A DNA stretch of 64,000 nt from an uncultured Solirubrobacteraceae bacterium (GCA_964588985.1 CAZPQW010000019.1:4632-68631), one strand, 5' to 3'; shown: positions 17,470 to 35,045, numbered from the stretch's first letter. Numbers and translations are program-made. Notes: a model not told the origin generated them from the sequence alone.

Positions 17470-18297
17470 TCAGCCGCTCATCCCGCCGAACAGGCCGCCG
17501 GTGATGTGCAGCGTCTGGCCGTGCACGTAGTTCGACCACGGCGAGCACAGGAAGAACACGCCGCCGGCTGCCTCTTCGGGTGTGGCAGGACGGCCGAGCG
17601 GGATCAGCATCGAGGCCATCTGACGCATCTGCTCGGGGATGCCGAGCTGGATCTTCTCGCCGTCGACCTCCATGGTGTTCTCGTCCACCTTCGCCTGCGT
17701 GAGGCGCGTGTCGATGAAGCCGAACGCGACGGCGTTGACGTTGACCTTGAACTGGCCCCACTCCTTCGCCACCGTTTTCGTCAGGCCCACCACGGCGGCC
17801 TTGCCCGCCGAGTAGTTCGCCTGGCCGGCGTTTCCGAACGTGCCCGATGTCGAGGACACGTTGACGATCTTGCGGAACACCTCCTGGCCTTCCTCGCGCT
17901 CCTTCTTGGCCGGCTCGCGCAGGTAGGGGGCGGCGGCGCGGATCACGCGGAACGGCACCACCGTGTGGATGTCGAGCATCGCCTGGAAGTGCTCGTCGGT
18001 CATCTTGTGCACCGGAGCGTCCAGGGTGTAGCCGGCGTTGTTGACGATGATGTCGATCTTGCCGAACGAGTCGATCGCCTTCGCCACCAGCTGGTCGGCC
18101 GCGCCGGGCTTCGTCAGGTCGCCCGCGAACACCGCGGTCTCGCCCTGGATCTCGCCGGAGGCCTGCTCGGCGATGTCGCCGTCGAGGTCGTTGATCAGAA
18201 CCTGGGCGCCCTGCGAGACGAGCAGCTCCGCGGTCGCGCGTCCGATCCCGCGGGCCGAGCCCGTCACGATCGCCGACTTTCCGTCGAGTACTCCCAT
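17470..18297 (-). CDS. SDR family oxidoreductase (FabG-like)
   Basis: GKSAIVTGSARGIGRA, NNAG, YSAGKAAVVG (YxxxK). Confidence 0.9.
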   Translation of the reverse strand: MGVLDGKSAIVTGSARGIGRATAELLVSQGAQVLINDLDGDIAEQASGEIQGETAVFAGDLTKPGAADQLVAKAIDSFGKIDIIVNNAGYTLDAPVHKMTDEHFQAMLDIHTVVPFRVIRAAAPYLREPAKKEREEGQEVFRKIVNVSSTSGTFGNAGQANYSAGKAAVVGLTKTVAKEWGQFKVNVNAVAFGFIDTRLTQAKVDENTMEVDGEKIQLGIPEQMRQMASMLIPLGRPATPEEAAGGVFFLCSPWSNYVHGQTLHITGGLFGGMSG

Positions 18298-18395
18298 AGC
18301 TGTTGCTTCTCCTTGTTGGTCGGGGAGGGGAAGTTATATAGGGCTGCGTGGAGTGGCTGGTGGGGGCGCCGAGGGGGCGTGGCGGGTCAGGCTGT

Positions 18396-18692
18396 CTACA
18401 GCTTGGGACGCTTGACTTGTTCGGATGCCGCTAGGTCCACCTGAGGGCCGGAGCCGGTTCTGATCCAGCCGGCAAGCTCCTCTCGGGCGCGGCGCGCTTT
18501 GCGGTCCTGGTCGGGCAGTTGAGAACGCTCGCGGGCGGTCTCCAACGAAGCGCGCACGTCCTTGTCGGCGATCGTCGTGCCTGTCGCTGCAACCACAGGG
18601 CCGTTGGGGCCGTCGATCACGCGCGGGTGCTTATCGTGCGGCGATGGCTCCACGTGGCCGGAGATCTTGGTGGGGTCAGCCGGCGGCTTCAT
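18396..18692 (-). CDS. Hypothetical protein
   Basis: ORF only; no recognisable motif. Confidence 0.35.
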   Translation of the reverse strand: MKPPADPTKISGHVEPSPHDKHPRVIDGPNGPVVAATGTTIADKDVRASLETARERSQLPDQDRKARRAREELAGWIRTGSGPQVDLAASEQVKRPKL

Positions 18693-18748
18693 TACACGAG
18701 GCTACCCGACCGAAAAGTGACTGTGTTTCTGTGATCCTGTGAGGCATT

Positions 18749-18988
18749 GTGACCAACATCATCGTCTCCGTTCCCGACGATGTCTACCGCGCCGCGCATA
18801 CCCGCGCGGCGGAACGGGGCAGCTCCGTCAGCGCGCTCGTGGCGGAGTACCTGAGGTCGCTGTCGGGGCTGGATGTCGAGGTCGCGAGGCTGGAGGCTCA
18901 GCAGCGATGCATCCAGGGCCAGGTCGGTCGGTTTAGTGCCCGCGACCGGGTCGATCGCGAGGAGCTGCACGGGCGTGCAGTTCGTTGA
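18749..18988 (+). CDS. Ribbon-helix-helix (CopG/VapB-like) antitoxin
   Basis: N-terminal IIVSVPDDVYRAAHTRAAERGSSVSALVAEYL is a typical RHH. It is followed by a PIN-like start, VQFVDTDV, that then decays. Confidence 0.6.
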   Translation: MTNIIVSVPDDVYRAAHTRAAERGSSVSALVAEYLRSLSGLDVEVARLEAQQRCIQGQVGRFSARDRVDREELHGRAVR

Positions 18989-19085
18989 CACTGATGTTCG
19001 GCGAGAGGGCGTCCAATCGGCTTGGACTACGGCGAGCTCGGGCGCATCCTGCACTCGATGGAGCGCGCTGGAGCATCCACGTATT

Positions 19086-19145
19086 TGTTCGGTGCAATTA
19101 GTTTGCCATCAACCGCACATTTAGAAATGTGTTCGGTACAATTAG
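19086..19145 (+). repeat. Two 16-nt direct repeats (tgttcggtGcaattag / tgttcggtAcaattag) upstream of fic
   Basis: Copies at 19086-19101 and 19130-19145, 15/16 identical, with starts 44 nt apart. The second contains tacaat ending 7 nt before ATG 19149. Confidence 0.5.
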
Positions 19146-19148
19146 ATC

Positions 19149-20276
19149 ATGCCTCAGCCGAACAAAATCACGGGGAGCGGCCGCGGCCGACCCACGAGAA
19201 CCGCTGTCTACGAGCGCCTGCGTGTTCAGATCAGCGAACTGCGTGACCGGCTCGGTGGTCTGCCCTCGCCTCGCGAGGCGGACGGGATCTGGCGCGGGAT
19301 ATGGCTCGAGGAGGCTCACCACTCGACTGCGATCGAGGGCAACACGCTCGTGCTCAAGCAGGTCGAGCAGCTGCTCGAGGAGGGCCGCGCGGTGGGCAAC
19401 AAGGAGCTCAGGGAGTACATGGAGGTACGTGGGTACGCCGATGCCGCCAATTGGGTCTACGGTCAGGCGCTGAACTCCGGCGCATGGTCGGCCGGCGAGC
19501 TTCTCTCGCTGACCGAGCTTCGCCACATCCATCGACTCGCGCTCACGCCCGCGTGGGGTGTCGCGCCTCATCCGAGCGCCGGCCATAACGAGAGTCCGGG
19601 CTCATTCCGCGAGCACGACATCCGGCCGTTTCCCGGTGGGATGCGCCCACCGCCGTGGCCCGAAGTCTCTGCCATGGTCACCGACTGGATTCGCGAGGTC
19701 CAAGCACTCGGTCGGGCGGGTGACGGCATCGAGCCCGAAGCGCTGGCCAAGGTGCATGTGCGCTTCGAGCAGATCCACCCATTTCTCGACGGCAACGGGC
19801 GCACCGGCCGGCTTGTTCTGAATCTGCTCCTGGTCAGGCTTGGCTATCCCCCCGCGATCATCTTCAAGGGCGATCGCCGGCGATACCTGGCCGCACTCCA
19901 GAGCGCCGATCGCGGCGACCATGGCCCGCTCGGGGAGCTGCTCGCCCGCGCCATCCTCGACAACCTCCACAAGTTCATCGTCCCCGCGGTCGCCGGTCCG
20001 TCACGCCTCGTCCCGCTGCCTGCTCTCGCCTCCGAGGAGATCTCCGCAAACGCGCTACGCGTCGCCGCGACGCGGGGGCGTCTCATGGCCTCCAAGGCCG
20101 CTGACGGCACGTGGCGCAGCACGCGCGCATGGGTTGAGGAATACCTGGCTGGGCGCTACGAGCGCGAGGCCCGCAGCAGAAGTAGAGAACACGGCGGACT
20201 GCCGGTAGTCCGTGTTCCGGCACGTACGCCTCCAATCACGCCAGAGATCGTGCGGCGAGCACTCGACGAGGATTGA
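19149..20276 (+). CDS. Fic family protein (class II, N-terminal auto-inhibitory helix)
   Basis: Fic motif HPFLDGNGRTGR. An upstream STAIEGN matches the [ST]xxxE[GN] inhibitory motif. Confidence 0.9.
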   Translation: MPQPNKITGSGRGRPTRTAVYERLRVQISELRDRLGGLPSPREADGIWRGIWLEEAHHSTAIEGNTLVLKQVEQLLEEGRAVGNKELREYMEVRGYADAANWVYGQALNSGAWSAGELLSLTELRHIHRLALTPAWGVAPHPSAGHNESPGSFREHDIRPFPGGMRPPPWPEVSAMVTDWIREVQALGRAGDGIEPEALAKVHVRFEQIHPFLDGNGRTGRLVLNLLLVRLGYPPAIIFKGDRRRYLAALQSADRGDHGPLGELLARAILDNLHKFIVPAVAGPSRLVPLPALASEEISANALRVAATRGRLMASKAADGTWRSTRAWVEEYLAGRYEREARSRSREHGGLPVVRVPARTPPITPEIVRRALDED

Positions 20277-20363
20277 GCTTCCCGGTGGCGCTGTTGGACG
20301 TCAACGCGACTCGAGCATCCTCGCCATGGGCGACGGAAATGACGTCGGGGTATTGACCACGCT

Positions 20364-23300
20364 TTGAAAGGATCCGACGGACGGGGATCCTCGGTACCGC
20401 AGGACCAGCAGCCACGTGATCCACCTCCATTCGGATCTAGGCGTTACGCTGCGGCGGTGGTCGGACCCAGCCCTGACGTTCCCCAGACAGCATCAATAGA
20501 CAACCCGATCCTCAACTCGCCCTACGCCCCGCCCGGCCGGCACTATGAGGTCGGCCAGAACGGTCCGACCGGGGTGATCAAGGACGGTCGGCGGCCGAGT
20601 GAGTCTTGGATTCCAATCGCCATGGCGAGGAAGGACAAGAAAGGCGCGCCGGTTCAGGAGACGATTGACTTCGATGTCACCGGCGAACGCCGGGAGCGCA
20701 ACGAGCTGATCAACGAGATACGGCGAGACGTCGCGAAGTGGCGTGGTGACGGTCAGTATGGGGGCGTCACGCCGATCACCCGCAAGTTGCTCCAACACTG
20801 GGCTGATGAGGATCGCGAGAACCGCGTCATCTTCGCGCAGCGCGAGGCGGCCGAGACGGCGATCTTCCTCACCGAGGTCGCAGGACGGCACCATGGGTAC
20901 GCCGACTGGCGGCGGCGGCTCGAGATCGAGAACGAGGCTCACAACGACGGGCTCCCACGAGCAGCCCTGAAGATGGCGACCGGAGGCGGCAAGACCGTCG
21001 TGATGGCGATGCTCATCGCCTGGCAGACCCTCAACAAGGTGCAGTCGCCGCGAGATGCGCGCTTCACCAACCGGTTCCTCGTCATCACGCCCGGGCTGAC
21101 GATCCGCGACCGGCTCCGCGTGTTGTTGCCCGAGGATGCCGAGAACTACTACGACCTACGCGACCTGATCCCGGCCGACCTCAAGGGCGGCCTCGAGCAT
21201 GCGCGCATCGCGATCACGAATTACCACGCATTCCAGCTTAAGGACGCCAAGGAGATCAAGGGCGTCGCCAAGAACACGCGCCTCCTGTTGAAGGGCTACC
21301 GCAGGGACGACCCGTTTAAGGAGACGTCGCAGGCGATGGTGAGCCGCATCTTGCGCGACCTCGGGCCGGACAAGCAGCAGATCATGGTGCTGAATGACGA
21401 GGCGCACCACTGCTATATGGACCGGCTGCTGCAGGCTGGCGAGAAAGCCGACAAGGAGCAACAGGACGCGAACGAGCAGGCCCGCGTCTGGTTCCGCGGC
21501 CTGCAGGCGGTCACAAAGCACGTGGGCGTCAAGCAGATCTGGGATCTCTCGGCGACGCCGTTCTACCTCAAGGGTTCCGGTTACAACGAGGGGTACATCT
21601 TTCCGTGGACGGTCAGTGACTTCTCGCTGATGGATGCGATCGAGTCGGGCATCGTCAAGGTCCCGCGGACGCCGGTCGACGATGATGCGACCGACCCGCT
21701 CGTCACCTATCTGCGCTTGTGGGACTACGTCGGCGCCGAGCTCCCGAAGCGAGCTGCGAAGGACACGGTCGCGGATTGGCTCCCGCCGAAGGAGCTCGAG
21801 GGCGCGTTGCGCAGTCTCCACCGCTCGTACGAGAAAGCGTTCGCGCACTGGGAGAAGGAGCTGGCGCAGTACGGCGAGACGCCGCCGGTGTTCATCGTCG
21901 TCTGTCCCAGCACTGTCGTCTCCAAGCTCGTCTACGACTGGATCGCGGGTGAGCAGGTCATCGAGGACGATGAGGTCGTCGCCCACAAACCCGGACAGCT
22001 TGCGCTGCTGTCGAACGTCGTCGGCGGCAAGCCGCTCGCGCGTCCGCGCACCATCCTCGTCGACTCGGCGCAGCTCGAGTCTGGCGACGGGATGAAGGAT
22101 GAGTTTAAGAAGATCGCGACTGCAGAGATCGCGGCCTTCAAGCAGGAGTACCGCAAGCGCAACCCGGGTGCCGACGTGGAGAAGATCGAGGACAGTGAGC
22201 TGCTCCGGGAGGTGATGAACACCGTCGGCAAGCGCGGCCGGCTCGGCGAGCAGGTTCGCTGCGTCGTCAGCGTCTCGATGCTCACCGAGGGATGGGACGC
22301 CAACACGGTTACGCACATCCTCGGCGTTCGCGCGTTCGGTAGCCAGCTCCTTTGCGAGCAGGTCATCGGCCGTGGCCTGCGCCGCCGCTCGTACGCAGTG
22401 AACGAGCAGGGGATGTTCGAGCCCGAGTACGCGAACGTCTACGGCATCCCGTTCCAGTTCATCTCGTCCGACAAGCCGCTCAAGGATCCGCTGCCGCCGA
22501 AGCCGGTGATCGAGATTTGCGCGGTCGAGGGCCGCGAGGAGCTGCGGATCGAGTTTCCCAGGCTCGACGGCTACCGCGTCGAGCTTCCCGACGATGAGAT
22601 CTGGCTGGACCTTGAAGGCGCACCCAAGTTCGATGTCGGTCCGAACACGGTGCCGAGCTGGGTCGAGATGGGCGGCGTTGTCGGCGAGCGTGAGCTCGAC
22701 GAAGGCGACCCGACGCAGTACCGGCCCCAGCAGGTCGCCTTCGCCCTCGCTAAGCGCGTCCTCGACGCCAATTTCAACACCGTCGACGACAGGCGTCCCT
22801 GGCTCTTCCCCCGGCTGGTCGAGATGTGTCGGGTGTGGATCGAGGAGAGGGTGATCGTTTCCGGTGGCTATAGCCTCGGGTATCTGATGACGATCACGGA
22901 GGCAAGAGTGCTGGCCGCCGAGGCGGTGTGGAACGCGATCGTGCGCCAAGAGGGCAACCGCCGAGAGCGACTGCGCCCGATGATCAATCGATTCGACCCC
23001 GTCGGCTCGACCGGCGACGTCGATTTCCAAACGCGCAAGCGCACCGTGCCGACTGAGAAGTCCGAGGTATCCCATGTCACTCTCGACGGCAAGGACGGCA
23101 ATACGTGGGAGCAGCTCCTCGCGAGCGAGCTCGAGCTGAACAGGAACGTGAAGTCGTACGTGAAGAATGACCACCTCGGCTTCACGATCCCCTACGTGCA
23201 CAAGGGGCGGAGCCACAGCTATACACCGGATTTCCTCGCCCGGCTCGAGCCTGGCGATGACGGGATCGTGCGGACCCTCATCGTCGAGGTCTCCGGCAGC

Positions 23301-23528
23301 CAGAAGAGCCCAGGGCCGACCCGCCAGAAGGCGACCACCGCACGCGAGTCCTGGTGCGTAGCGGTCAACAACCACGGCGGCTTCGGCCGTTGGGGCTATA
23401 TAGAGATGACCGATCCGCTCGCGTTCAAGGCACGCCTCTCGGATGCGATCCAGGCGCTGTACGGCGACAACGCGATCATCGGCGACCCCGATCGTCTCGA
23501 CTTCGAGTTGGCAGGCCATGGCGCGTAG
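20364..23528 (+). CDS. Type III-restriction-like Res subunit (SF2 helicase plus C-terminal PD-(D/E)xK-like region)
   Basis: ATGGGKT Walker A, NDEAHH (DEAH), QVIGRGLRR motif VI, and C-terminal YTPDF...IVEVSGSQK. Start uncertain (TTG 20364 or GTG 20457). Confidence 0.85.
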   Translation: MKGSDGRGSSVPQDQQPRDPPPFGSRRYAAAVVGPSPDVPQTASIDNPILNSPYAPPGRHYEVGQNGPTGVIKDGRRPSESWIPIAMARKDKKGAPVQETIDFDVTGERRERNELINEIRRDVAKWRGDGQYGGVTPITRKLLQHWADEDRENRVIFAQREAAETAIFLTEVAGRHHGYADWRRRLEIENEAHNDGLPRAALKMATGGGKTVVMAMLIAWQTLNKVQSPRDARFTNRFLVITPGLTIRDRLRVLLPEDAENYYDLRDLIPADLKGGLEHARIAITNYHAFQLKDAKEIKGVAKNTRLLLKGYRRDDPFKETSQAMVSRILRDLGPDKQQIMVLNDEAHHCYMDRLLQAGEKADKEQQDANEQARVWFRGLQAVTKHVGVKQIWDLSATPFYLKGSGYNEGYIFPWTVSDFSLMDAIESGIVKVPRTPVDDDATDPLVTYLRLWDYVGAELPKRAAKDTVADWLPPKELEGALRSLHRSYEKAFAHWEKELAQYGETPPVFIVVCPSTVVSKLVYDWIAGEQVIEDDEVVAHKPGQLALLSNVVGGKPLARPRTILVDSAQLESGDGMKDEFKKIATAEIAAFKQEYRKRNPGADVEKIEDSELLREVMNTVGKRGRLGEQVRCVVSVSMLTEGWDANTVTHILGVRAFGSQLLCEQVIGRGLRRRSYAVNEQGMFEPEYANVYGIPFQFISSDKPLKDPLPPKPVIEICAVEGREELRIEFPRLDGYRVELPDDEIWLDLEGAPKFDVGPNTVPSWVEMGGVVGERELDEGDPTQYRPQQVAFALAKRVLDANFNTVDDRRPWLFPRLVEMCRVWIEERVIVSGGYSLGYLMTITEARVLAAEAVWNAIVRQEGNRRERLRPMINRFDPVGSTGDVDFQTRKRTVPTEKSEVSHVTLDGKDGNTWEQLLASELELNRNVKSYVKNDHLGFTIPYVHKGRSHSYTPDFLARLEPGDDGIVRTLIVEVSGSQKSPGPTRQKATTARESWCVAVNNHGGFGRWGYIEMTDPLAFKARLSDAIQALYGDNAIIGDPDRLDFELAGHGA

Positions 23529-26217
23529 GGCGAAGCAGGCTGGGTCCACGCCGGTCGACTCGATCACGCATGGGGACAAGCGGACGAACATCCCCACCGC
23601 TGACGCACTCGCCTTCGTCGACCCCGCGATCGAGGAGGTCCGCAAGGTTCGCTACGCGCGTGATGAGAGTCTCGACCCGCAGCTTGTCTGGCGCGGGAAG
23701 TATCCGCCCGTCGATGAGATCGGTGAGGCCGACCTCGACCTCGTCACCGACGCGCCGCCGATCTACATACAGGAGAAGATCGACCCGCGCGTTCTAATCG
23801 AGAACCTCCGCCGCACCGCGGAGAAGCCCGACGACGAGCCTGAGCTGACCCTGTTCGACTCCTTCGACGGGCTGGATGAGTTCGATCAGGTGGACTTCTA
23901 CAAGCATGACGCCAACTGGTCGAATCGCATGATCCTCGGTGACAGCCTGCAAGTGATGGCGTCACTCGCGGAGCGCGAGAAGCTCCGCGGAAAGGTGCAG
24001 ATGGTCTACATCGACCCGCCGTACGGAATCAAGTTCGGGTCGAACTTCCAAGTCTCAACGAGGAACCGCGCCGTGAAGGACGGGAATCGTGAGGACACGG
24101 TTCGTGAAGCGGAGCAGATCAAGGCCTTCCGCGACACATGGGAGATGGGGATCCACTCGTACCTCACATATCTTCGTGATCGCCTGATCGCCGCTAGGGA
24201 GCTACTGACTGAATCAGGGTCATGCTTCGTCCAGATCGGCGATGAGAACATGCACCTTGTTCGTTCGGTCATGGACGAGGTCTTCGGTGCGGCTTCGTTT
24301 GTCAGTGCAATCGTCTTCTCCAAGACCGCCGGGGCATCGGGAGACTCGCTGTCGGGCGTTGTTGACTACCTGTTGTGGTACGCGCGGAATCCTGATGCCA
24401 TGAAGTACAGGCCGCTCTTTACGTCGAAGGTGGCAGGTGAGAGCGGTGCCACGCAATACCGGTTTGTTGAGAAGGTTGGCGGCGAGCGACTGCCGCTCGG
24501 CGAGACTGTCCTTGAACCGGGCGATCGGCTCTTTGCACACGACAACCTGATGAGCCAGCGACCGGCCCAAGGGGCAGATGTGCGTGAGTTCACCTTTCAG
24601 GGTAAGGTCTTTCGCCCGAGGGCAGGCACGTTCAAGACTGATCAGGCCGGGCTGGAGTGCCTCGCGGCAGCACGACGACTGTTCTGGGTTGGCAACACCC
24701 TTAGATACGTCAGGTTCCTCGATGACTTCAATGCGTCACCACTGACGAATCTCTGGACGGATACGGGAACTTCAGGATTCGCCGACTCAAAGACATATGT
24801 GGTCCAGACACTTCCTCGGGCGATCGAACGTTGCGTGCTGATGTGCACCGATCCAGGTGACCTCGTTCTCGACCCGACCTGTGGCTCAGGAACGTCCGCC
24901 TACGTTGCTGAACAGTGGGGACGTCGGTGGATCACCATTGACACATCACGCGTTGCTCTCGCCCTAGCTCGGCAGCGAGTGATGGGTGCAAGGTATCCGT
25001 GGTATCTTCTCGCGGACTCCCCGGAAGGGCGTCTGAAGGAGCAGTCACTCGTGGCATATGCCCTGCCGCGAGACCCCGGAGAAGCCTCTAATAAAGATAT
25101 TCACGAGGGGTTCGTTTACGAGCGCGTACCTCACATCATGCTGAGCTCGATCACCAACAACCCGGACATCGAGGCGGGCATGATGCGTGACCAGGTCGAT
25201 GCTGCAATCAACCGTCATGCAGAATTCGAGCTGCTGTATGACCGGCCATTCGAGGAGGCCAAGAAGGTCCGCGTCGCCGGCCCCTTCACAGTCGAGTCGC
25301 TGAGCCCACATCGCTCGCTCTCGTTCGGCGACAGCTCCGAATCCCTCTCTGAGACTAAGGCCGCCAAGGACGCCGACGCACCAAACTTCGAGCAGTCGAT
25401 CCTCGATAACCTCGCGAAGGCCGGCATCCAGAACGGCCGCCGGCAGGAGCGGATCGCGTTTGCGGCGTTCGAGACATATGCGGGCGACTACATCCAGGCG
25501 ATCGGCCAGCGCGACGGCAAGACGGATGGGGACACCCCGGTGCGGATCGCGATCGCGATCGGCCCGCAGTACGGCACCGTCAGCCCGTCGTATGTGAAGA
25601 AGGCGGCGCGCGAGGCGATCGAAGCAGACGACGTCGACCTGCTCGCGATCCTCGGCTTCGCCTTCGACCCGCAGGTCACCGGCCTCACCGAGGGCGACGG
25701 CGTCAGCATCGAGGCTTCCGACGAGGGCTTCGCCACCGTCGCGGGCGTTCGCAAGCTGGGCCGCATCCCAGTACTAATGGTGCGTATGAACGCCGACCTC
25801 CTTATGGGCGAGGAGCTGAAGAAGACCGGCGCCGGCAACCTTTTCACCGTATTCGGCGAGCCCGACATCGCGTGGGATGAGACCGAAGACGGCATCGTGG
25901 TCGATCTTAGGGGCGTCGACGTCTACGACCCGACGACTGGCGAGGTGCGCAGCAACAGCACCGACCAGATCGCGCTCTGGATGATCGACACCGAGTATGA
26001 CGAGGAGTCGTTTTTCGTCCGGCATTGCTATTTCACGGGCGGCAACGACCCGTACAAGCGCCTGAAGACCGCGCTCAAGGCTGACATTGATGAAGAGGCG
26101 TGGGAGTCGCTCTACCGGACTATCTCCCGCCCCTTCCCGAGGCCTGAGACCGGCAAGTTCGCCGTCAAGGTAATCAACGACTACGGCGATGAGGTCATGA
26201 AGGTCTTCGAGGTCTGA
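23518..26217 (+). CDS. Site-specific DNA methyltransferase (N6/N4, beta-class order) with a long C-terminal extension
   Basis: Motif IV YIDPPYG precedes motif I LDPTCGSGTS by roughly 280 aa. ATG 23518 overlaps the res stop by 11 nt. Confidence 0.9.
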   Translation: MARRAKQAGSTPVDSITHGDKRTNIPTADALAFVDPAIEEVRKVRYARDESLDPQLVWRGKYPPVDEIGEADLDLVTDAPPIYIQEKIDPRVLIENLRRTAEKPDDEPELTLFDSFDGLDEFDQVDFYKHDANWSNRMILGDSLQVMASLAEREKLRGKVQMVYIDPPYGIKFGSNFQVSTRNRAVKDGNREDTVREAEQIKAFRDTWEMGIHSYLTYLRDRLIAARELLTESGSCFVQIGDENMHLVRSVMDEVFGAASFVSAIVFSKTAGASGDSLSGVVDYLLWYARNPDAMKYRPLFTSKVAGESGATQYRFVEKVGGERLPLGETVLEPGDRLFAHDNLMSQRPAQGADVREFTFQGKVFRPRAGTFKTDQAGLECLAAARRLFWVGNTLRYVRFLDDFNASPLTNLWTDTGTSGFADSKTYVVQTLPRAIERCVLMCTDPGDLVLDPTCGSGTSAYVAEQWGRRWITIDTSRVALALARQRVMGARYPWYLLADSPEGRLKEQSLVAYALPRDPGEASNKDIHEGFVYERVPHIMLSSITNNPDIEAGMMRDQVDAAINRHAEFELLYDRPFEEAKKVRVAGPFTVESLSPHRSLSFGDSSESLSETKAAKDADAPNFEQSILDNLAKAGIQNGRRQERIAFAAFETYAGDYIQAIGQRDGKTDGDTPVRIAIAIGPQYGTVSPSYVKKAAREAIEADDVDLLAILGFAFDPQVTGLTEGDGVSIEASDEGFATVAGVRKLGRIPVLMVRMNADLLMGEELKKTGAGNLFTVFGEPDIAWDETEDGIVVDLRGVDVYDPTTGEVRSNSTDQIALWMIDTEYDEESFFVRHCYFTGGNDPYKRLKTALKADIDEEAWESLYRTISRPFPRPETGKFAVKVINDYGDEVMKVFEV

Positions 26218-26234
26218 CGACAGGGGAGGACGGA

Positions 26235-29042
26235 GTGCCGATCTACACACAGGCCCAGGCCGAGGCAATCTCCTGCCTCGACGAGCCGCTTCAGATGATC
26301 GCGTGTGCCGGCTCGGGGAAGACCCAGGTGATCTCTCAGCGGATCGCATCGATCCTCTCGCTTCCGGGCGTCGAGCCACGAAACGTCGTCGCGTTCACGT
26401 TCACCGAGAAGGCGGCGGCGGAGCTTCAGGACAGGATCTATTTCATCCTCGAGGAGGAGGGCGTAGACCGGCTCGGGCTGGCAGAGATGTATGTCGGAAC
26501 GATGCACGGGTACGCCCTCGACCTGTTGCAGCGGCTCGTCCCGGAGACCTTTAAGTTCTCGGTGCTGACGGACATCACCTCGCGGCTGCTCGTCGACAGG
26601 AACAGCAGGCAGTCCGGCTTGACCGTCTGCCCGACCAGCTCTCCCGGCACGCCTACGCTGCGGCGCTACATCCACTCGAAGCTCTTTCTGCAGGCAACGA
26701 GTGTGCTCCGCGAGGACGAGGTCGATGGAGATCTGGTGCCGGAGGGCGTGCAGTCATCGTTCCGCGACTACATGAGGTTGATTTTCGAGAAGGCCTATTT
26801 CGACTACACCGAGATCATCAACCTCGCAGTTCAGTTTCTCGAGGGAGATGAGGATGACGATGAGGACGCGGCCAGGATCCGCAGTCACATCCGTGACGAC
26901 ATTCGCTACGTTGTGGTCGACGAGTACCAGGATGTCAACCCGCTTCAAGAGCGTCTCGTCCGGGGGCTGACGCAGTTCGGTGCGAACCTTTGTGTCGTCG
27001 GAGACGACGATCAGACGATCTACCAGTGGCGTGGGAGCGAGGTCTCGAACATCGTCACGTTCGCCGACCGGTACGCTGGCGTCCGCCAGGTGACACTCGC
27101 CGAGAACTTCCGCTCGAGCGAGGGTGTGGTCGAGGTGGGGAGGTCGATCGCGGAGCAGATCCCCGCCGGTAGTCGCCTGCCGAAGGCAATGGTGCGCGCT
27201 GGCCACCAGACCTGGGACCGAGGTGACTTGATCGCTCGCGACTTCGCCGACGAGGACGAGGAGGCCGCGTGGATCTGCGATCGCATCGAGGCAATGCGCG
27301 GACTTGCCTTTCAGGACACTGCCGACAACGAGGCACGGGGCCTCTCGTGGTCGGACTTCGCCGTGCTGTTCCGGTCTGTCGCGAAGGACGCGGACCCACT
27401 AGTCGCGGAGATGCGGCGGCGCGAAATCCCGTACGTCGTTAAGGGTCTGAATCGCCTCTTCGACAGCCCGGAGATCACCGCTGTCGTCGGGGCGTTTCGC
27501 TATATGGCTGGCCTCGTCGATGCGCCGGCTCTACGGGACCTCTGGCAGGACGCGAACCTTCTCCCCGGGAACGGCGACTGGGCTGCGGCACTCGCTGTCC
27601 TAGAGGACGGTCGCGACTTCGACCGGGGAGAGCGGTGGGGCGTCTACAACATCCAGCGGCTTTACCTCGACTTTCTCGCCGCGCTCGGCGTGCGCGAGGA
27701 GACGGTTCCGGGTGAACCGGTGCGGCGAGAGCTCGTCTTCTACCAGCTCGGGAAGTTCAGCCAGGCGATCTCGGACTTCGAGGCTATCTACTTCAACAGC
27801 GAGCCTGCGCGGAAGTACGAGGCGTTCGCGAAGTGGCTCGAGTACCAAGCTCCGGATTACTACGCGGAGTCCGACGCCGACGTGGGGTATGCGACGCCGG
27901 ACGCGGTCACGCTCACAACAGTGCATCAGGCCAAGGGCATGCAATGGCCGGCGGTATTCATTCCCTGTCTGCGCAAGAACCGCTTCCCGTCGAAGCGGCA
28001 CGGCGGATTGGGCCTCTTCCACGTCATCCCGGAAGCTGCCATCGCCGATGCCGACCGCTACCGCGGCACCGTCGAGGACGAGACACGCCTCTTCTATGTT
28101 GCAGCCACTCGTGCCCAGAAGTACCTGTTCGTGTCGTTCTCGCCTGGGTCGAACCAGCTCTACAGGAAGCGGTCGGACTTCTTCGACCACTGCGCGAGCC
28201 AGCAGTGGTTCTCAACCAGGGACACGGGTGTGCCGGCGGACGCGCCGCGGCTCGAGCCTCGAGCCCACCACGAGACGCCGAACGTAACGCTGTCGTTCTC
28301 GGAGCTGAAGTACCTGTTCGAGTGCCCGTACCAGTTCAAGCTGCGCTTCCTCTACGGGTTCAACCCTCCGCTGCACGAGGCACTTGGCTACGGCAAGGGT
28401 CTACACGACGCGCTGTCGGAGCTGCACAAGCGTGCGCTCGCCGGCGACATCGTCGGGAACGACAAAGCCGAAGATCTCGTCGACCGGCATCTGCACGCTC
28501 CGTACGCGTACCCCGCGCTGCGCCAGACGCTGCGCGACGCAGCCGTGAAGTCCGTCCAGCGATATCTCGACGAGCACGGCTCGACGCTTGAGAAGACCGT
28601 GCACAGCGAGAAGGAGATCCAGGTGCACGTCGCTCCCGGTATCACCGTCGCCGGCCGGATCGACCTCGTCCGGCGACTGGACACCGACGAGCTCTCGATC
28701 GTCGACTTCAAGTCGACTGCTCGCGCACAGGACGAGGACGTGACGCGCGATCAACTGCACGTCTACGCCGTCGGTTACGAGGAGCTCACCGGCGAGCGGG
28801 CGGACCTGATCGAGGTGCTCAACCTCGACGAGGAAGGCAAGACCATCAGGGAGGAGGTCGAAGAGCCGCTCCTCGTCGGCGTGCGTTCGCAGATCCGCGA
28901 CGCGGGCGATTCGCTGCGGGAGAACAACCTTCCGCGCCTGGCCTCATGGGGCGAGCAGTGCTCCAAGTGTGACCTCGCCGAGCTGTGTCGCGATGTTCCT
29001 GCATTGGAGAAGGCGTCGCGACGTGCGGCCTCTGGTCGCTAA
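26235..29042 (+). CDS. UvrD/PcrA-type SF1 helicase fused to a Cas4/AddB-like 4Fe-4S PD-(D/E)xK nuclease
   Basis: Helicase motifs: CAGSGKT, VVDEYQD, GDDDQTIYQWRG, ENFRS, HQAKGMQW, YVAATRA. C-terminal nuclease motifs: ECPYQF, GRIDLV...IVDFKS, QLHVYA, CSKCDLAELC. The GTG start lies 17 nt after the mod stop and has a ggggagga RBS. Confidence 0.9.
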   Translation: MPIYTQAQAEAISCLDEPLQMIACAGSGKTQVISQRIASILSLPGVEPRNVVAFTFTEKAAAELQDRIYFILEEEGVDRLGLAEMYVGTMHGYALDLLQRLVPETFKFSVLTDITSRLLVDRNSRQSGLTVCPTSSPGTPTLRRYIHSKLFLQATSVLREDEVDGDLVPEGVQSSFRDYMRLIFEKAYFDYTEIINLAVQFLEGDEDDDEDAARIRSHIRDDIRYVVVDEYQDVNPLQERLVRGLTQFGANLCVVGDDDQTIYQWRGSEVSNIVTFADRYAGVRQVTLAENFRSSEGVVEVGRSIAEQIPAGSRLPKAMVRAGHQTWDRGDLIARDFADEDEEAAWICDRIEAMRGLAFQDTADNEARGLSWSDFAVLFRSVAKDADPLVAEMRRREIPYVVKGLNRLFDSPEITAVVGAFRYMAGLVDAPALRDLWQDANLLPGNGDWAAALAVLEDGRDFDRGERWGVYNIQRLYLDFLAALGVREETVPGEPVRRELVFYQLGKFSQAISDFEAIYFNSEPARKYEAFAKWLEYQAPDYYAESDADVGYATPDAVTLTTVHQAKGMQWPAVFIPCLRKNRFPSKRHGGLGLFHVIPEAAIADADRYRGTVEDETRLFYVAATRAQKYLFVSFSPGSNQLYRKRSDFFDHCASQQWFSTRDTGVPADAPRLEPRAHHETPNVTLSFSELKYLFECPYQFKLRFLYGFNPPLHEALGYGKGLHDALSELHKRALAGDIVGNDKAEDLVDRHLHAPYAYPALRQTLRDAAVKSVQRYLDEHGSTLEKTVHSEKEIQVHVAPGITVAGRIDLVRRLDTDELSIVDFKSTARAQDEDVTRDQLHVYAVGYEELTGERADLIEVLNLDEEGKTIREEVEEPLLVGVRSQIRDAGDSLRENNLPRLASWGEQCSKCDLAELCRDVPALEKASRRAASGR

Positions 29043-29116
29043 GGTCTGGGATTCAGAACGTATGCGGCCATCAGGCTAATCCCGCGGGTCACTGCGACGC
29101 CATTTCTGTGCCGGAC

Positions 29117-29146
29117 TTGACATTCTTCCAAAGAGCGGGATAAGCT
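29117..29146 (+). promoter_or_regulatory. Putative sigma70-type promoter (ttgaca-18 nt-taagct) for the 4-TM gene
   Basis: The -10 ends 7 nt before ATG 29153, which implies a leaderless or near-leaderless mRNA. Confidence 0.4.
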
Positions 29147-29152
29147 CATGAA

Positions 29153-30085
29153 ATGGATGTCGGGAGGCAGGTTTTCCGTTTCTCGATTCCTGGTTCTATT
29201 CTGCTTCTCTGGATGTCCATAGGCGTGGTCCTGATGCGCGTAATCGCGGGCGTCTCCCTGACGACAGCCACAGGGCCACTGCGTGAGAACCTTTCCGCGT
29301 TTGCCGCGATTTTGGCAGCGATTCCAGTGGGGTTCATCGTATATCAGGTCTATTATGTCTTTTATCGGCCAATGTTCCTGGGCTGGCCAATGATCTGGTA
29401 CGGGCGATGGATTCGTCTGGATAGGGCATCCCAAGTGCTGTCGCACTTCGAGGAGGATCAAATTCAAGCTTTGCGAGAGCTTTTTGGTGCTCAGTTGGAT
29501 GTGTCTAAGCCTCACGAGCACGAGAAGCTGTGGCCATTTAGATATCTCCGGCTACTCAGATTTTCTCAAGAGTATCTTGATCGCTTTGAAGGCAAGGCTG
29601 ATGCGCGTGCGGCATATCGTGCCCGATGGCATGGTAACTGGGATGTATTGCGTGCCGTTATCGATATCAGCGAGGCCAGTGACGCAACGAGTGGCGTGAA
29701 GCGGGAATACGCGAACCTTGCAGACATTTATCATTCTCTGGGAGCTACGCGCATGGCTATTTGGGGCGCGTGGTTTGCGAGTGCTGGGGTGACGCTCGCC
29801 GCTACGGTTAACCTGCACGAACCGCTCGCGAATTGGTTGTACGGCTTGCTTGCCTACTCGTTCATAACCGCCGTCATCCTTGTGGTCATGCACGAGACTC
29901 GAAGGCAGACCTGGAATTCCGCATCGAAATCCCTTCTTTTTGGACTGCGGTGGATTCTTGACAACCATCCGGAGCTGTTTGAACCAGCGCCGCAAGAGAG
30001 CGAGTCATCTCAGGCCGGGCCCCTAAAGCGCCTCCGACGACGTGTCCCGTGGCGCCCGTCAGTTGCCGAGCCGGAGGAAAGCTGA
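29153..30085 (+). CDS. Four-TM membrane protein with a central helical cytosolic domain, unknown function
   Basis: Two N-terminal and two C-terminal hydrophobic helices. Lowest GC in the window (about 50% by eye). No family recognised. Confidence 0.65.
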   Translation: MDVGRQVFRFSIPGSILLLWMSIGVVLMRVIAGVSLTTATGPLRENLSAFAAILAAIPVGFIVYQVYYVFYRPMFLGWPMIWYGRWIRLDRASQVLSHFEEDQIQALRELFGAQLDVSKPHEHEKLWPFRYLRLLRFSQEYLDRFEGKADARAAYRARWHGNWDVLRAVIDISEASDATSGVKREYANLADIYHSLGATRMAIWGAWFASAGVTLAATVNLHEPLANWLYGLLAYSFITAVILVVMHETRRQTWNSASKSLLFGLRWILDNHPELFEPAPQESESSQAGPLKRLRRRVPWRPSVAEPEES

Positions 30086-30170
30086 TCGCTGGGCACCCGC
30101 GCGGCTGAGGCATCCTCGGGACATCGGGGTACAGTTCCCAGAATGCATGGCGCCTGTGGCGGTTCAGGAG

Positions 30171-30206
30171 TGGAGCCAGCCAGACTCGAACCGACCTCTG
30201 CTTCCC
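30171..30206 (-). other. tRNA 3'-end-like fragment (T-arm plus acceptor 3' strand), possible att remnant
   Basis: The minus strand reads gggaagcagagGTCGGTTCGAGTCTGGCTGGCTCCA. This gives the T-loop GTTCGAGTC context and a 7-nt acceptor strand plus discriminator, but the T-stem has two G-U pairs. No matching 5' half or anticodon arm is present. Confidence 0.35.
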
Positions 30207-30956
30207 TCACCCCCCGGCAATAACCCCAAAGTCCTGCGTATAGATCCCGCCGCTCATCCCGCCCCCCAACGCCCGCGGCGGATGCGACGAAACCCCGATC
30301 CCCGTGTCCCTGAAGTGCCCATCGAGAATGTTCGCGCGGTGCAACGGCGAGGCCATCCACGCGGCGACGATCGACCGCGGCGTGCCCAGCCACAGCGTGC
30401 CCCATGCGATGTTCTCGCCGACCTGGAAGCTGTGTGAGCCGGAGATGTAGCCGGCTTCGCGCATCCGCTGCAGCGGCGTCTGGCCGCCCGGGCCGGTGTG
30501 TTCGAAGTAGTCGTTGACGACCATGCTCGTCGTGTGCCCCTGCGCCGCCTGCTGTAGCTGCGGGTTTGCGACGAGCGGCGTCTCGCCGTGCGCCGCACGT
30601 TCGCGGTTTACCAGGCAGAGCGTCGCTGCACGGATCAGTTCGAGGTTCTGCGTCGTGGGCGCAAGCCCGGCGTTCGCGCAGCCATCGGTGCCGCTGTCCG
30701 CTGACTTGGAGAGCGCGGTGACGGTGCTCGTGGAGCGGTTGACGGCTTTGGAGTGGTGCTTCACGCAGCTGACGTGAACGCGTCGCTTCGAGTGCTTTCG
30801 CGCCTTTACCGAGTGTGCATACCTGCCGCAGCGCGTCGCCCGATGGGCGCGCTTGTGCGTGCTCGAGGTTGCGCCGAGCGCGAGCGATCCGCCGTCGAGG
30901 GCGGCGAGGCTGAGGACGGCGATCACGGCAAGGCAGAGGAGGCGTAGTCGAGCCAC
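30207..30956 (-). CDS. Secreted CAP/SCP (YkwD-like) domain protein
   Basis: Signal peptide MARLRLLCLAVIAVLSLAAL, plus CAP motifs NRERAAHG...HTTSMVVNDYFEH...GENIAWG...WMASPLHRANIL. Confidence 0.85.
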   Translation of the reverse strand: MARLRLLCLAVIAVLSLAALDGGSLALGATSSTHKRAHRATRCGRYAHSVKARKHSKRRVHVSCVKHHSKAVNRSTSTVTALSKSADSGTDGCANAGLAPTTQNLELIRAATLCLVNRERAAHGETPLVANPQLQQAAQGHTTSMVVNDYFEHTGPGGQTPLQRMREAGYISGSHSFQVGENIAWGTLWLGTPRSIVAAWMASPLHRANILDGHFRDTGIGVSSHPPRALGGGMSGGIYTQDFGVIAGG

Positions 30957-31580
30957 ATGGCCCTATCGGGCCACATGTGCGCGAACATGAGTAGTGCAGC
31001 GGAGGTTTGGACAGGTTCATCTCGCCGCGGTTGCGCCTGGGACGATCTCGGCCTCCACCTCGACGCCCCGCCAGCGGTCGCCATGGGCGACCTCGAGGAC
31101 CAGCTGCGGGCCCGGATGTGGGTTGGAGCGCTGCGGTTTCCCGGGCGCCACTCTCACCCTCGCATCGCGTGACGCGCGCAGGAGCCGCACCGAGTAACCG
31201 CTCTGTCCGGAGCCGCAACGCAGCACGAACCTCGAGACGGACGACAGGGCAAGCTCGTGGCGGTTCCCGGCCGACAGGACCACCGTCCTATGGCTCTTCA
31301 GCACCGCGACGATGGTCGCGCCGGACGCCCAAGTGGGGAAGCGGACGGTCGCCTGGAGGTGCTCGCTCCCGCGCTTGCGCTCGATCTGCCATCGGGTACG
31401 AATTCGCTCGGCCTCGAACGTGTGCGTCGTGCGCACGCTCAGCGAGCCCTGACGGATCTCGCCGACGCATTGGATCTCCTCGAAGCCGCCCGCGTACGGG
31501 TGCGCGGGGTGCAGCGCGCCCTCACCGGCCCGTGAGGGCGAGCGGCGGGTCACCGCTAGCGGCGGCGTGGCGCCCGCGGC

Positions 31581-31618
31581 GCGACGCGGCGTCTGCGACG
31601 CGACGCGGCGTCTGCGAC
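31581..31618. repeat. Perfect 19-bp tandem duplication gcgacgcggcgtctgcgac x2
   Basis: Copies at 31581-31599 and 31600-31618 are identical. The next 4 nt (gcga) begin a third copy. Confidence 0.95.
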
Positions 31619-33096
31619 GCGAGCACCGTGCGGTTGCCGTCCGAGATCGTCACCCCGAACCCGGCCGCTCCGTACGGACCGATCCCGCCCGCCACTCGTT
31701 GCCCGCTGTCGAACAGTCGCGCGAGCTCGATGCCGCCGTATGGAAACGCGCCGTTGCTCACCGCGACCACGGCCGTGTTGTAGACCGGCGTCGTGATCGC
31801 CAGCCGGCCGATCCCGCGGTCGTACGCGTACAGGGGCGGAGGTCGCTCGCCGTGCGCATGCCCGAGACCGTCGTGGACGGCACGCGCCGCCTGGGACTGG
31901 AACCGTGTCGCGAACAGCCAGTGCGCAGGAAACTGGTCGCGCTTCGGCATGAACACCGGGCTCGCCGGGGTGCGCTCGGAGGGGCCGGCCTCGAGCGCCA
32001 GGCGCTGGTAGGTGCCGAGCGCGCGATCGAAGATGTACTTGGCCCACGAGCCGAGCTCTGGGCTGCGCAGCTCCGTCGGAGCATTCGCGATAGCCAGCAG
32101 GCCGTCGAGGGCGAACGCCCAGTAGCGCCCCGCGTGCCAGCGCGCGAGGAACATGCCGGTGTCCCAATTGAGGTAGCCGCTGTGCGTCCAATAGGCGGGG
32201 ATCGCGTGCGCGATCCAGCCTCGCAGGGTGCGCAGCTGCTGCGCCGGCAGCGGCTCCATTCCTGCGGCCCGCGCCTGGGCATAACCGGCGATGACGCCGA
32301 GCACGAGGTTGGCGTACTCGGCCGACTCGATGTTTTCCGGGGCGCCGGCGGGCGCAAACGGATTGCGGTGGAAGCTGTAGCTGCGGCTGAGGTTGGATAT
32401 CGACCAGGGAGCGGCCGGTCTCTCGCAGCCCTCCAGGAAACGGCACAGCTGGCGGCGGTAGTCGTTGCGCAGCAGGTCCGTGCGTCCTGCGACCTCCGCC
32501 GCGTACGCGTACATCTCGCACTGCCAGTTGCACTGGTTCAGGCGCACGCTCGGGTAGCGGAAGAAGGGGCCGGCGGCCATCGCCGCGACCTCGTGCTCGA
32601 TCGTGGCCACGTCGGTTGACGGGAGGCCGAGCACGTCGCGGGCGCGCCACGCGAACACGAGGCCCTCGGTCATCTCGGGATCCACCGCCACGTGCTGGAG
32701 GCTGTCGAGGCTCGACATGCTGGAGACGAATCCCGGCGTGTGTCGCTGTCCAGGGCCTTGGCTGCCCCACTTCCCGCCGGGTCGATACGGCGGGCTTCGC
32801 AGCATGCGCGCGACGAGCGACCGCGCGCGATCGTCCTGGCGTGTGGGGCCCACGTGGCCCGCTAGCGCAGCGATCGAATGCGTGATCAGCATCCCCGCGT
32901 TGACTCGTCCGTCGTCGCCATAGCAGCCGGTGCTTGGGTCCCAGAGATGCTCCATGCCCGGCTGACACCAGTCCGCGAACGCCCAGTAGTCGCCGTCGCC
33001 GTACTGCTGCGCCAGTCGCGGCGGCGAAGAGGCGGCGGCCGGCGCGGGAGCCATCGCCCATTCGATGGCGGCCGCGCCCGGCAGCGAGGCGACCAC

Positions 33097-33126
33097 GCCG
33101 GCGGCGCCGAGGCCGGCGGCGCCGAG
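33097..33126. repeat. 15-bp in-frame tandem duplication gccggcggcgccgag x2 (plus an 11-nt partial copy)
   Basis: Encodes the repeated AAGLG AAGLG in the Tat signal h-region of the same gene. Confidence 0.9.
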
Positions 33127-33227
33127 GCCGGCGGCGCGCGCGAGCAGCTCTCTCCGCGTAGTTTCTCCGGTGTCCGTCACGGGGCGAGCGTAACTCCGAC
33201 GACCCGGGCGTCAAAGCGCCGGGCCGA

Positions 33228-34388: not shown

Positions 34389-34431
34389 CGCTGATATGCC
34401 TGATGTTGGGTCATCTGGCTATATTAATATC

Positions 34432-34647
34432 GTGCGGCGAACAACATTGGACATCGATGAGGATATGCTCGCGAAAGCGAGAGAGATACTCGGAACTCGA
34501 GGCGTGAAGGACACCGTAGACGAGGCGCTGCGTGAGGTGGTGCGCCGCGAGGCGGGTACGCGCATCATCGAGTGGCTGAAGGAGAACGAGGATCTGCAGA
34601 ATCCCGAGATCATGGAACGCGCGTGGCCGCCGCCGCTCATCTCGTAG
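34432..34647 (+). CDS. vapB: VapB-type antitoxin
   Basis: RRTTLDIDEDMLAKAREILG is typical of the RTTLDIDD-type VapB family. GTG 34432 lies directly behind tatatt/taatat; the alternative start is ATG 34396. Confidence 0.8.
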   Translation: MRRTTLDIDEDMLAKAREILGTRGVKDTVDEALREVVRREAGTRIIEWLKENEDLQNPEIMERAWPPPLIS

Positions 34648-35045
34648 ACAACAGCGTCTTGACTCGCATGGGGAAGGGCCCCGTTGCATCGCGGATCGAG
34701 CCGATGATCGTGTCGGGCACGTTGGCGACCTGCTCGATGACAGATCTCGAGCTTCTGTTCAGCGCTCGTAACGGCGAGGAGCACCGCGCGCGACGCGACG
34801 ATTTCGCATTGCGGTTCCTCCATGTGCAACTCGACCAGCGGATGTTCGACCGTGCGATCGAAGTCCAAGGACTGCTCGCCGAGAAGGCTCAGCACCGCGC
34901 GGCGAGCATCCCCGACCTCGTCGTAGCGGCCGCGGCTGAGCACGCGGGGCTCACGGTGCTCCACTACGACGCCGACTTCGACCTGATCGCCACGGTCACC
35001 GCGCAGCCGACCGAGTGGGTCGTGCCGCGCGGCTCCGTCGACTGA
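34623..35045 (+). CDS. vapC: PIN-domain toxin VapC
   Basis: LVDNSVL start and conserved acidic positions (DLE..., IPDLVVAAAAE, YDADFD). GTG 34623 overlaps the vapB end. Confidence 0.8.
   Translation: MAAAAHLVDNSVLTRMGKGPVASRIEPMIVSGTLATCSMTDLELLFSARNGEEHRARRDDFALRFLHVQLDQRMFDRAIEVQGLLAEKAQHRAASIPDLVVAAAAEHAGLTVLHYDADFDLIATVTAQPTEWVVPRGSVD

Follow-up and report, generated by a model that had tools for sequence, protein, structure and literature searches.

The DNA described here, called the window, is the whole stretch of 64,000 nucleotides that was analysed from an uncultured Solirubrobacteraceae bacterium (GCA_964588985.1, CAZPQW010000019.1:4632-68631); positions are counted from its first letter. 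Within it, a block of accessory genes is found between a gene for a short-chain dehydrogenase (SDR) and a gene for a secreted protein of the CAP/YkwD family. Five large genes make up most of the block: one for a Fic-domain protein, the res and mod genes of a Type III restriction-modification (R-M) pair, one for a UvrD-Cas4-like helicase-nuclease fusion, and one for a protein with four transmembrane (TM) segments, termed here the 4-TM protein. The stretch from about 18350 to 30206 is very probably a mosaic of accessory DNA, specific to this lineage, that was inserted between two conserved core genes and has a Res-Mod-UvrD/Cas4 operon as its core. The flanking genes and the features of this operon are as follows.

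17470-18297, minus strand: short-chain dehydrogenase, the left core flank (Pfam adh_short_C2, E=4e-51)
20425-29069, plus strand: transferable Res-Mod-UvrD/Cas4 cassette of 8.6 kb, delimited by DNA identity to loci L091 and L092
20457-23528, plus strand: Res, a Type III-like restriction endonuclease of the BPTD_3080 family (NF046055, Pfam ResIII)
23518-26217, plus strand: Mod subunit, 899 amino acids (PADLOC MTase_III, Pfam N6_N4_Mtase)
24288-24837, plus strand: swapped target-recognition region of Mod, where DNA homology with L091 and L092 breaks and base composition shows a trough
26235-29042, plus strand: UvrD-Cas4-like helicase-nuclease fusion, 935 amino acids (UvrD, UvrD_C and PDDEXK_1/Cas4 domains)
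30207-30956, minus strand: CAP/YkwD-family secreted protein, the right core flank (Pfam CAP, E=7e-17)

The insertion between the SDR and CAP genes

For comparison, the SDR locus was fetched from 80 species-level genome representatives, all of them Solirubrobacteraceae or Solirubrobacterales metagenome-assembled genomes, with SDR proteins of 88-98% identity. The CAP gene is on the same side of the SDR gene in 72 of the 80 relatives. In these 72 species the two genes are separated by a median of 119 bp, and by less than 200 bp in 57 of them; the distance in the window is 11,909 bp. All 80 relatives lack homologues of the five large genes of the block at the SDR-CAP spot. At the DNA level, similarity to the relatives can be followed from the left up to 18340-18365 and is found again from 30205-30226, where the CAP gene has its stop codon.

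An earlier note on this DNA, made from the sequence by eye, had described an accessory block with defence-type genes between 18990 and about 30170 and had suggested that it might behave as an indel when aligned with the closest genomes. It does so: the block is absent from the relatives, where the flanks are nearly adjacent, and the flank comparison over 72 species together with the gene content bears out its accessory and defence-type character. As to the limits, the left breakpoint of the indel is about 640 bp to the left of 18990 and the indel extends from about 18350 to 30206; 18990 itself is an internal junction, the point at which a PIN toxin gene is truncated.

The block occurs with the same junctions in 23 of 23 metagenome contigs that encode an identical SDR and in 15 of 15 that encode an identical 4-TM protein. 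These contigs represent several samples and three assembly sources (JGI, ENA and Logan). An assembly chimera is excluded by the recurrence of both junctions in independently assembled contigs, and all of the sampled population has the block.

The SDR-CAP interval is a recurrently variable spot. Eleven species have 0.5-1 kb between CAP and SDR, and a weak homologue of a small open reading frame of the block, h98, is found in five of these. Four species carry 2-6 kb of unrelated cargo. In L011, the closest species, the cargo is a pair of large secreted proteins; it is an acyl-AMP ligase/methyltransferase/monooxygenase cluster in L014, a secreted protein and an amidase in L081, and a DDE transposase in L083.

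The block also differs in base composition. Guanine-plus-cytosine (G + C) content is 67.1% for the whole window and 62.7% for 18990-30206, against 68.8% leftward and 67.7% rightward of it. The variable block as a whole has 63.0%, and the remainder of the window 68.1%. When 2-kb windows are compared, the island has a mean of 63.0% and the outside 68.0 +/- 2.9% (Mann-Whitney p=1.6e-5). The values by gene are 67.4% for Fic, 64.4% for Res, 61.1% for Mod, 63.9% for UvrD and 55.2% for the 4-TM gene. The drop that had been estimated by eye, to the high 50s or low 60s, is thus real but was overstated; likewise the last gene, put at about 50%, has indeed the lowest G + C of the block, but not so low. 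A tetranucleotide comparison had also been suggested at that time. The raw tetranucleotide distance of the block is elevated (p=6e-5), but with a composition-normalised measure the block is the same as the flanks (p=0.28). Because the difference vanishes after base-composition normalisation, the compositional signal of the block is essentially one of G + C. The window is likewise lower in G + C at 6-8 kb and 49-58 kb.

The Res-Mod-UvrD/Cas4 cassette

The Res open reading frame opens at 20364. The likely start is a GTG codon at 20457, which gives a protein of 1023 amino acids (1054 from the opening of the frame), and the 1023-amino-acid gene is the one called in the population contigs. Res matches the NCBIfam profile NF046055 ('BPTD_3080 family restriction endonuclease') with 1163.6 bits, where the cut-off is 800, over profile positions 1-969 of 970. 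The helicase-like motor is detected by Pfam ResIII (E=3e-9) and its GGGKT, DEAH and QxxGRGLRR motifs are intact. A C-terminal PDF...E...K motif is kept in 29 homologues. A literature search on the name 'BPTD_3080' found no paper.

The mod gene is adjacent to res and co-oriented with it, its start (23518) overlapping the Res stop (23528) by 11 nt. The Mod protein is matched by PADLOC MTase_III PDLC03632 (871 bits) and by Pfam N6_N4_Mtase (E=2e-27), and its best sequence matches in the PDB are Type III Mod subunits, 6k0w and 4zcf/EcoP15I. The third gene starts 17 nt downstream of mod. It encodes a fusion with UvrD-helicase (E=6e-50), UvrD_C (E=7e-30) and PDDEXK_1 (E=4.5e-22) domains in Pfam; the Cas_Cas4 match (E=1.6e-4, 22.2 bits) is just below the cut-off of 22.7. 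The fusion displays a Walker A motif GSGKT, a DEYQD motif, a DFK nuclease motif and four cysteines in the arrangement C...CxxCx5C (FECPYQF...CSKCDLAELC). By these profile and motif matches, Res and Mod are assigned as a Type III R-M pair, and the helicase-nuclease is a known and conserved partner of theirs, not a separate item. Phase-variable simple repeats were not found in mod or res, and a scan for promoters and terminators gave results at or below shuffle expectation.

The gene content read by eye in the earlier note, namely a class II Fic protein, a Res-like helicase, a DNA methyltransferase, a UvrD-Cas4 protein and a 4-TM protein, was confirmed by profile searches. The PADLOC run it had proposed gave the MTase_III match for Mod; the matches to REase_III, SoFic and Gabija/DRT models are weak, partial or generic. 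Two other assignments of the helicase were rejected. The GajB models of Gabija match the generic UvrD core (E=1e-52), but a GajA-like gene is missing from the block, and the DRT matches are also to the generic UvrD core, with the partner genes missing.

The metagenome contigs L091 and L092 display 88-90% DNA identity to the window over 20425/20440 to 29046/29069 only, except in the target-recognition region. Their flanks are unrelated to those of the window: a Replic_Relax-family gene is downstream in L091, and cupin, TetR and GNAT genes flank the cassette in L092. Since identity is confined to the cassette span and the flanks differ, the 8.6-kb Res-Mod-UvrD cassette is the unit that moves. 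The block that had been described as a single island is therefore accessory but not one unit, as only 20425-29069 recurs elsewhere.

In Mod, residues from about 250 to 420 are 22-38% identical to the L091 and L092 proteins, whereas identity elsewhere in Mod is 85-98%. The corresponding DNA segment has a G + C content of 58.7% and accounts for the trough at 24-25 kb. Because the swapped segment is the variable centre of this beta-class methyltransferase, the Mod of the window should recognise a different site from those of its closest cassettes.

With the UvrD-nuclease protein as query, 80 related metagenome loci of 52-95% identity were obtained. Res, Mod and UvrD are found in this order, with a BPTD_3080-type pair, in about 39 of the 80, and a different Type III pair is beside the helicase-nuclease in 17 more. 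This second family consists of a 716-amino-acid Mod (976 bits to PADLOC MTase_III PDLC03645) and an 871-amino-acid ResIII protein. Altogether, a Type III pair is beside UvrD-Cas4 in 56 of the 57 loci with adequate flanks, L093 being the exception. The order is rearranged to UvrD-Mod-Res in L167 and L169. In a rough tree of the helicase-nuclease proteins by the unweighted pair group method with arithmetic mean, those with second-family partners fall into two separate groups within those of the first family, which implies at least two exchanges of the Type III partner, as far as this tree is a guide. The other neighbours in the UvrD loci are genes typical of defence (TmtA, IetA/IetS, and HerA together with a Dam-like methyltransferase). 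A distant plasmid homologue of the fusion, of 33% identity, adjoins Dcm, Vsr and an MspI-type (Type II) enzyme.

It is possible, although the proposal is a tentative one, that UvrD-Cas4 is a functionally required third component of Type III R-M, turning a single cut into processive destruction or feeding fragments onward. The proposal is based on the adjacency to a Type III pair in 56 of 57 loci and on its persistence when the Res/Mod family was exchanged, at least twice, and when the gene order changed.

Many cassettes in this set carry additional genes. In L102, L103, L106, L108, L123, L125, L129, L131, L133, L137, L141-L146 and L166, the Mod-UvrD interval contains one to four additional, non-homologous genes, or the Res-Mod interval a helix-turn-helix-like protein of about 270 amino acids. 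A CBS-domain protein is among the examples, and the Mod-UvrD junction seems to be the preferred slot for such add-ons.

Passenger genes, the tRNA-like end and other variable stretches

The remaining features of the block are found on either side of the cassette.

18396-18692, minus strand: small open reading frame h98, 98 amino acids, no family; part of a variable spacer and not defence cargo
18749-18988, plus strand: RHH (VapB-like) antitoxin without toxin partner (sub-threshold Pfam DUF6364, FitA-like_RHH and RHH_5)
18966-18998, plus strand: stump of a PIN toxin gene, first 11 codons, at an internal mosaic junction (tblastn to the N-terminus of the L144 PIN protein)
19083-19145, plus strand: 19-nt direct repeat ATKTGTTCGGTRCAATTAG in two copies (19083-19101 and 19127-19145), 89% identical and 44 nt apart, upstream of the Fic start codon
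19149-20276, plus strand: class II (FICD-like) Fic-domain protein, a passenger (Pfam Fic, PF02661, E=2e-14)
29153-30085, plus strand: orphan 4-TM protein, 310 amino acids, 55% G + C, treated as a passenger; two hydrophobic helices at each end
30171-30206, minus strand: string resembling a tRNA 3' end and abutting the CAP stop codon, the sole GGTTCGARTC match in the window

The leftmost reading frame, h98, has no match in Pfam, NCBIfam or PADLOC. Its weak homologues (51-54% over about 52 amino acids) are between CAP and SDR in five relatives, where the spacers are about 0.8 kb.

Identity between the RHH protein of the window and one encoded in locus L144 is 57%; the L144 gene directly precedes an intact PIN gene of 141 amino acids, with overlapping stop and start codons. 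In the window, the stump CTGVQFVDTDV aligns with the L144 sequence CTIVRFIDTDI (7 of 11 residues identical) and similarity ends at about 18998. The rest of the PIN gene was found nowhere in the window, the right end of the block included, and a simple insertion into a vapC gene was rejected on this ground. The locus thus has an intact RHH reading frame, below the Pfam cut-offs, and 11 codons of a PIN gene in place of an intact VapBC pair. That an RHH antitoxin with a decayed PIN partner is present had been correctly noted; the PIN gene is truncated after 11 codons, though, and does not mark the island edge. Positions 18990-19000 are an internal junction, at which an older toxin-antitoxin unit meets the Fic unit. 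In L144 itself, a 488-amino-acid Fic-domain gene, an RHH gene and an intact PIN gene are in a row (20493-22670, minus strand), a few kb from a Res-Mod-UvrD cassette; these are the same three gene types as in the left part of the window, in a different order.

The spacer that carries the ATKTGTTCGGTRCAATTAG repeats has a G + C content of 54%. A TGTTCGG core is present again at 18995-19002, the PIN truncation point, and in inverted form at 19157-19166, just inside the Fic open reading frame. The repeats are possibly an operator for autoregulation.

In the PDB, the Fic protein has its best sequence matches among FICD homologues (E=3e-24). It has an intact active-site motif, HPFLDGNGRTGR, and the inhibitory STAIEGN motif is N-terminal in the same chain, STAIEGNTL aligning with TVAIEGNTL of FICD. 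The protein is in this respect like the class II FICD/HYPE proteins, which have an HxFx(D/E)GNGRxxR active site and an N-terminal inhibitory (S/T)xxxE(G/N) helix, and the class II assignment made by eye holds with both motifs and the FICD alignment. PADLOC matches were to SoFic (83 bits, profile positions 52-243 of 361) and to PDC-S04 (87 bits). Unlike SoFic, the protein scores 34 bits against the NCBIfam equivalog NF046030, with a cut-off of 550, and the match to SoFic chains in the PDB is confined to residues 174-228 (55 residues). A SoFic identity was rejected, the score being far below the equivalog cut-off and full-length similarity being absent. Near the cassettes of the 80 UvrD loci, Fic matches were one partial match on the opposite strand (L122) and one distant match (L135); Fic is a passenger unlinked to the cassette.

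The 4-TM protein has no family match in Pfam, NCBIfam or PADLOC. Its homologues comprise 16 clusters among 5.8 billion and display 25 invariant positions; none was found in the 80 UvrD loci. The contexts of the homologues are unrelated to Type III R-M: one is beside an IS66 transposase and others are between regulators. In L180 and L181 the homologue adjoins a Gabija-like OLD/UvrD pair and a DUF4365 protein. A confident AlphaFold model of the protein (predicted local distance difference test 84.7, predicted template modelling score 0.78) has no fold match at E<=0.001 in the PDB or BFVD. The best non-significant folds are the PomA/MotA stator in the PDB (E=1.3, TM-score 0.26-0.36) and a match of E=0.36 in BFVD. 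The MotA/PomA-like topology of two plus two TM helices, as modelled, is a lead and not evidence. A role of this rare family as an uncharacterised membrane effector is conceivable; the gene itself is best regarded as a passenger in its own right.

At the right end of the block, the minus strand from 30206 to 30171 reads ...GCAGAGGTCGGTTCGAGTCTGGCTGGCTCCA, with the 3' end GGTTCGAGTCTGGCTGGCTCCA. A 36-mer resembling a tRNA 3' end had been noted at this edge by eye, and the string is indeed there, at 30171-30206. It contains the T-loop consensus, a possible T-stem that needs two G-U pairs and a seven-base acceptor-like tail. The string is absent from the CAP-SDR spacers of the relatives and, with up to four substitutions allowed, from about 180 fetched loci; it therefore belongs to the inserted DNA. 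Viral contigs gave no exact match. None of 11 tRNAs in the fetched loci resembles the string as a parent, and a second copy of the tRNA-like 31-mer is absent from the window with up to three mismatches allowed. Direct or inverted repeats flanking the block do not go beyond short matches at chance level. ARAGORN detected no tRNA gene in the 64 kb and Rfam no RNA family in 17-32 kb. Domains of integrases, transposases or relaxases were not found in the open reading frames of the block, in agreement with what had been seen by eye for integrases and transposases. In comparison with tRNA-integrated islands, the block therefore has a one-sided tRNA-like string, and integrase, tRNA gene and flanking repeats are lacking.

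In three other loci, tRNA-Thr(CGT) and tRNA-Pro(CGG) genes are 0.3-0.6 kb downstream of UvrD-Cas4 and on the opposite strand (L114 and L115 at 8700-8775, L117 at 5809-5885). A remnant attachment site at the tRNA-like string is plausible but unproven; it is suggested by these tRNA genes and by the Replic_Relax gene in L091. The tRNA genes in L114, L115 and L117 have the same geometry as the window's tRNA-like fragment.

Other stretches of the window are also variable or atypical. Next to the island, at 30957-33227, two minus-strand open reading frames (31017-31553, 178 amino acids; 31522-33180, 552 amino acids) without Pfam match are found between the CAP gene and an acyl-CoA dehydrogenase gene. 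A counterpart of these frames is present in none of the 80 relatives, where the flanking genes are about 0.1-0.45 kb apart. The stretch has a native-like G + C content of 69-74% and looks like a second lineage-specific insertion beside the island, with no compositional signal. An intact VapB-PIN pair (PF09957, E=4e-9; PIN, E=2.5e-8) is at 34306-35045 between two paralogous acyl-CoA dehydrogenase genes, and the spacing of these two genes varies among relatives. The stretch at 49000-58353 has a lower G + C content (59-66%) and the strongest tetranucleotide deviation of the window; it encodes proteins of 1310 amino acids (with NHL repeat) and 1133 amino acids. Homologues of this pair, of 40-43% identity, fill the SDR-adjacent hotspot in L011 (2603-8433), and the secreted-protein pair looks like another movable accessory module. 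At 6000-8000, where G + C is 62-63%, a class I S-adenosylmethionine-dependent methyltransferase and a limonene-epoxide-hydrolase/SnoaL-like protein are encoded.

Proposed function, rival explanations and known systems

It is proposed that Mod would methylate host sites and give the complex its sequence specificity, and that the Res-Mod complex would cut unmethylated incoming DNA. The helicase-nuclease would then load on the resulting ends and degrade the DNA, in analogy to AddAB/RecBCD after restriction. The orphan RHH antitoxin, the autoinhibited FICD-like Fic gene and the rare 4-TM gene would be passengers acquired in separate events. The block is without mobility genes; its most likely route of arrival was recombination, or entry as a fragment of some larger element.

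Several points weigh against this account of a mosaic insertion built around a Type III operon. How Res-Mod and the helicase-nuclease share the work is inferred by analogy. As to Res, the C-terminal nuclease gives a weak TnsA-like Pfam match below cut-off (E=0.008), a sequence match among PDB structures was not found, and the PADLOC REase_III models match the protein weakly, with 23 bits. With respect to the timing and route of insertion, flank identity to the window is about 79-82% at the nucleotide level in all comparators, and an empty site in the same species was not seen; every contig with an identical SDR or 4-TM protein has the block. Finally, a match to the T-loop consensus occurs at least once in 39% of shuffled windows and the tRNA-like string could be due to chance. 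Because a chance match is this frequent, only the position of the string, within about 25 nt of the right junction, is informative.

That position is one reason to consider the block a decayed tRNA-targeting integrative element, such as an actinomycete integrative and conjugative element or a prophage, which has lost its integrase and of which the 36-mer is a surviving attachment-site copy. The string is exactly at the right end and is missing from the spacers of the relatives, L091, the closest relative of the cassette, has a Replic_Relax gene of plasmid or actinomycete integrative-element type after the cassette, and tRNA genes follow UvrD on the opposite strand in L114, L115 and L117. Against this, the 64 kb has no tRNA gene and the left end no second copy of the repeat; integrase, excisionase and relaxase genes are absent from the block; the SDR-CAP spot of the relatives is without a tRNA, the parent tRNA was not found and the T-stem needs two G-U pairs. 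The integrative-element origin is accordingly considered unlikely, but it is the least unlikely of the rival explanations.

Far less probable is that Fic, Res, Mod, UvrD-Cas4 and the 4-TM protein constitute one integrated multi-gene defence system, as the compact, same-strand array of the five large genes might suggest. Fic-domain genes are indeed within 10 kb of the cassette in L122, L135 and L144, and the 4-TM homologue adjoins a Gabija-like pair in L180 and L181. But at the DNA level the closest cassettes resemble the window no further than 20425 and 29069, leaving Fic and the 4-TM gene outside; a 4-TM homologue is in 0 of 80 UvrD loci and otherwise in unrelated contexts, Fic is in few loci and in other orientations, and the units differ in G + C content (67% for Fic, 63% for the cassette, 55% for the 4-TM gene). 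The co-occurrence data largely refute a five-gene system. The notion that the block is ancestral, or a chimera of metagenome assembly, and not an acquired insertion is hardly credible. It draws on the source being a metagenome-type contig and on comparators of about 80% nucleotide identity. However, the JGI, ENA and Logan samples provide 15-23 independently assembled contigs with both junctions, an ancestral block would have to have been lost from each of the 72 related species that have both flanks, the composition is shifted, and the cassette is found elsewhere with other flanks.

The components of the island all belong to known families, and by itself it is a fairly ordinary defence island, unsurprising to a specialist. 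For the annotation of this genome, the true limits of the insertion are fixed at about 18350-30206 and three genes that belong together are identified. If UvrD-Cas4 is a required component, the cassettes would represent a class of restriction systems with three components, predicted computationally, for which a test was not found in the literature. Near-identical cassettes with differing Mod recognition regions would be a natural set suited to studies of specificity and of the third gene.

Defence islands at genomic hotspots are a general concept. The block is like such islands in its clustered, unrelated defence-type genes (R-M, Fic and a toxin-antitoxin remnant), in its atypical composition, in its absence from relatives and in that the same intergenic spot is filled by different cargo in other species. 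It is unlike them in that the cargo of the other species at this spot is not defence-related, and in the lack of an integrase or tRNA gene.

The cassette can also be compared with the classical Type III systems EcoP15I and EcoP1I. As in these, Mod belongs to the beta-class N6/N4 methyltransferases and is variable at its centre, and its best PDB relatives include EcoP15I. Res has a DEAH helicase-like motor like theirs and what may be a C-terminal PD...E...K nuclease motif. The gene order of EcoP1I and EcoP15I is mod then res; in the window it is res then mod. The Mod protein has 899 amino acids, compared with 644 in the EcoP15I Mod chain. Res differs from the classical enzymes in that it has no detectable match to solved structures and belongs to a separate family, BPTD_3080, and the cassette differs in its third conserved gene.

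The closest parallel is with the loci described by Hudaiberdiev et al. (2017, BMC Evol Biol 17:232; PMC5704561), who reported a monophyletic UvrD-Cas4-like fusion whose commonest neighbourhood is Type III Mod and Res and whose second context is Dcm/Vsr, and who predicted an ancillary defence role for it. The association of UvrD-Cas4 with Type III genes is thus already described computationally, and an experimental follow-up was not found in the literature searched. The fusion of the window is like those described, with a superfamily 1 UvrD helicase, a C-terminal PF12705/Cas4-like nuclease and a Type III Mod/Res neighbourhood, and the plasmid homologue beside Dcm, Vsr and a Type II enzyme matches the second context. 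Nothing essential differs. The 56 of 57 loci, the two partner families and the transferable 8.6-kb unit give quantitative support to the 2017 prediction of dedicated Type III partners, and what is added here to the known loci is the putative partner switching between two families, the swap of the target-recognition region and the transferable unit itself.

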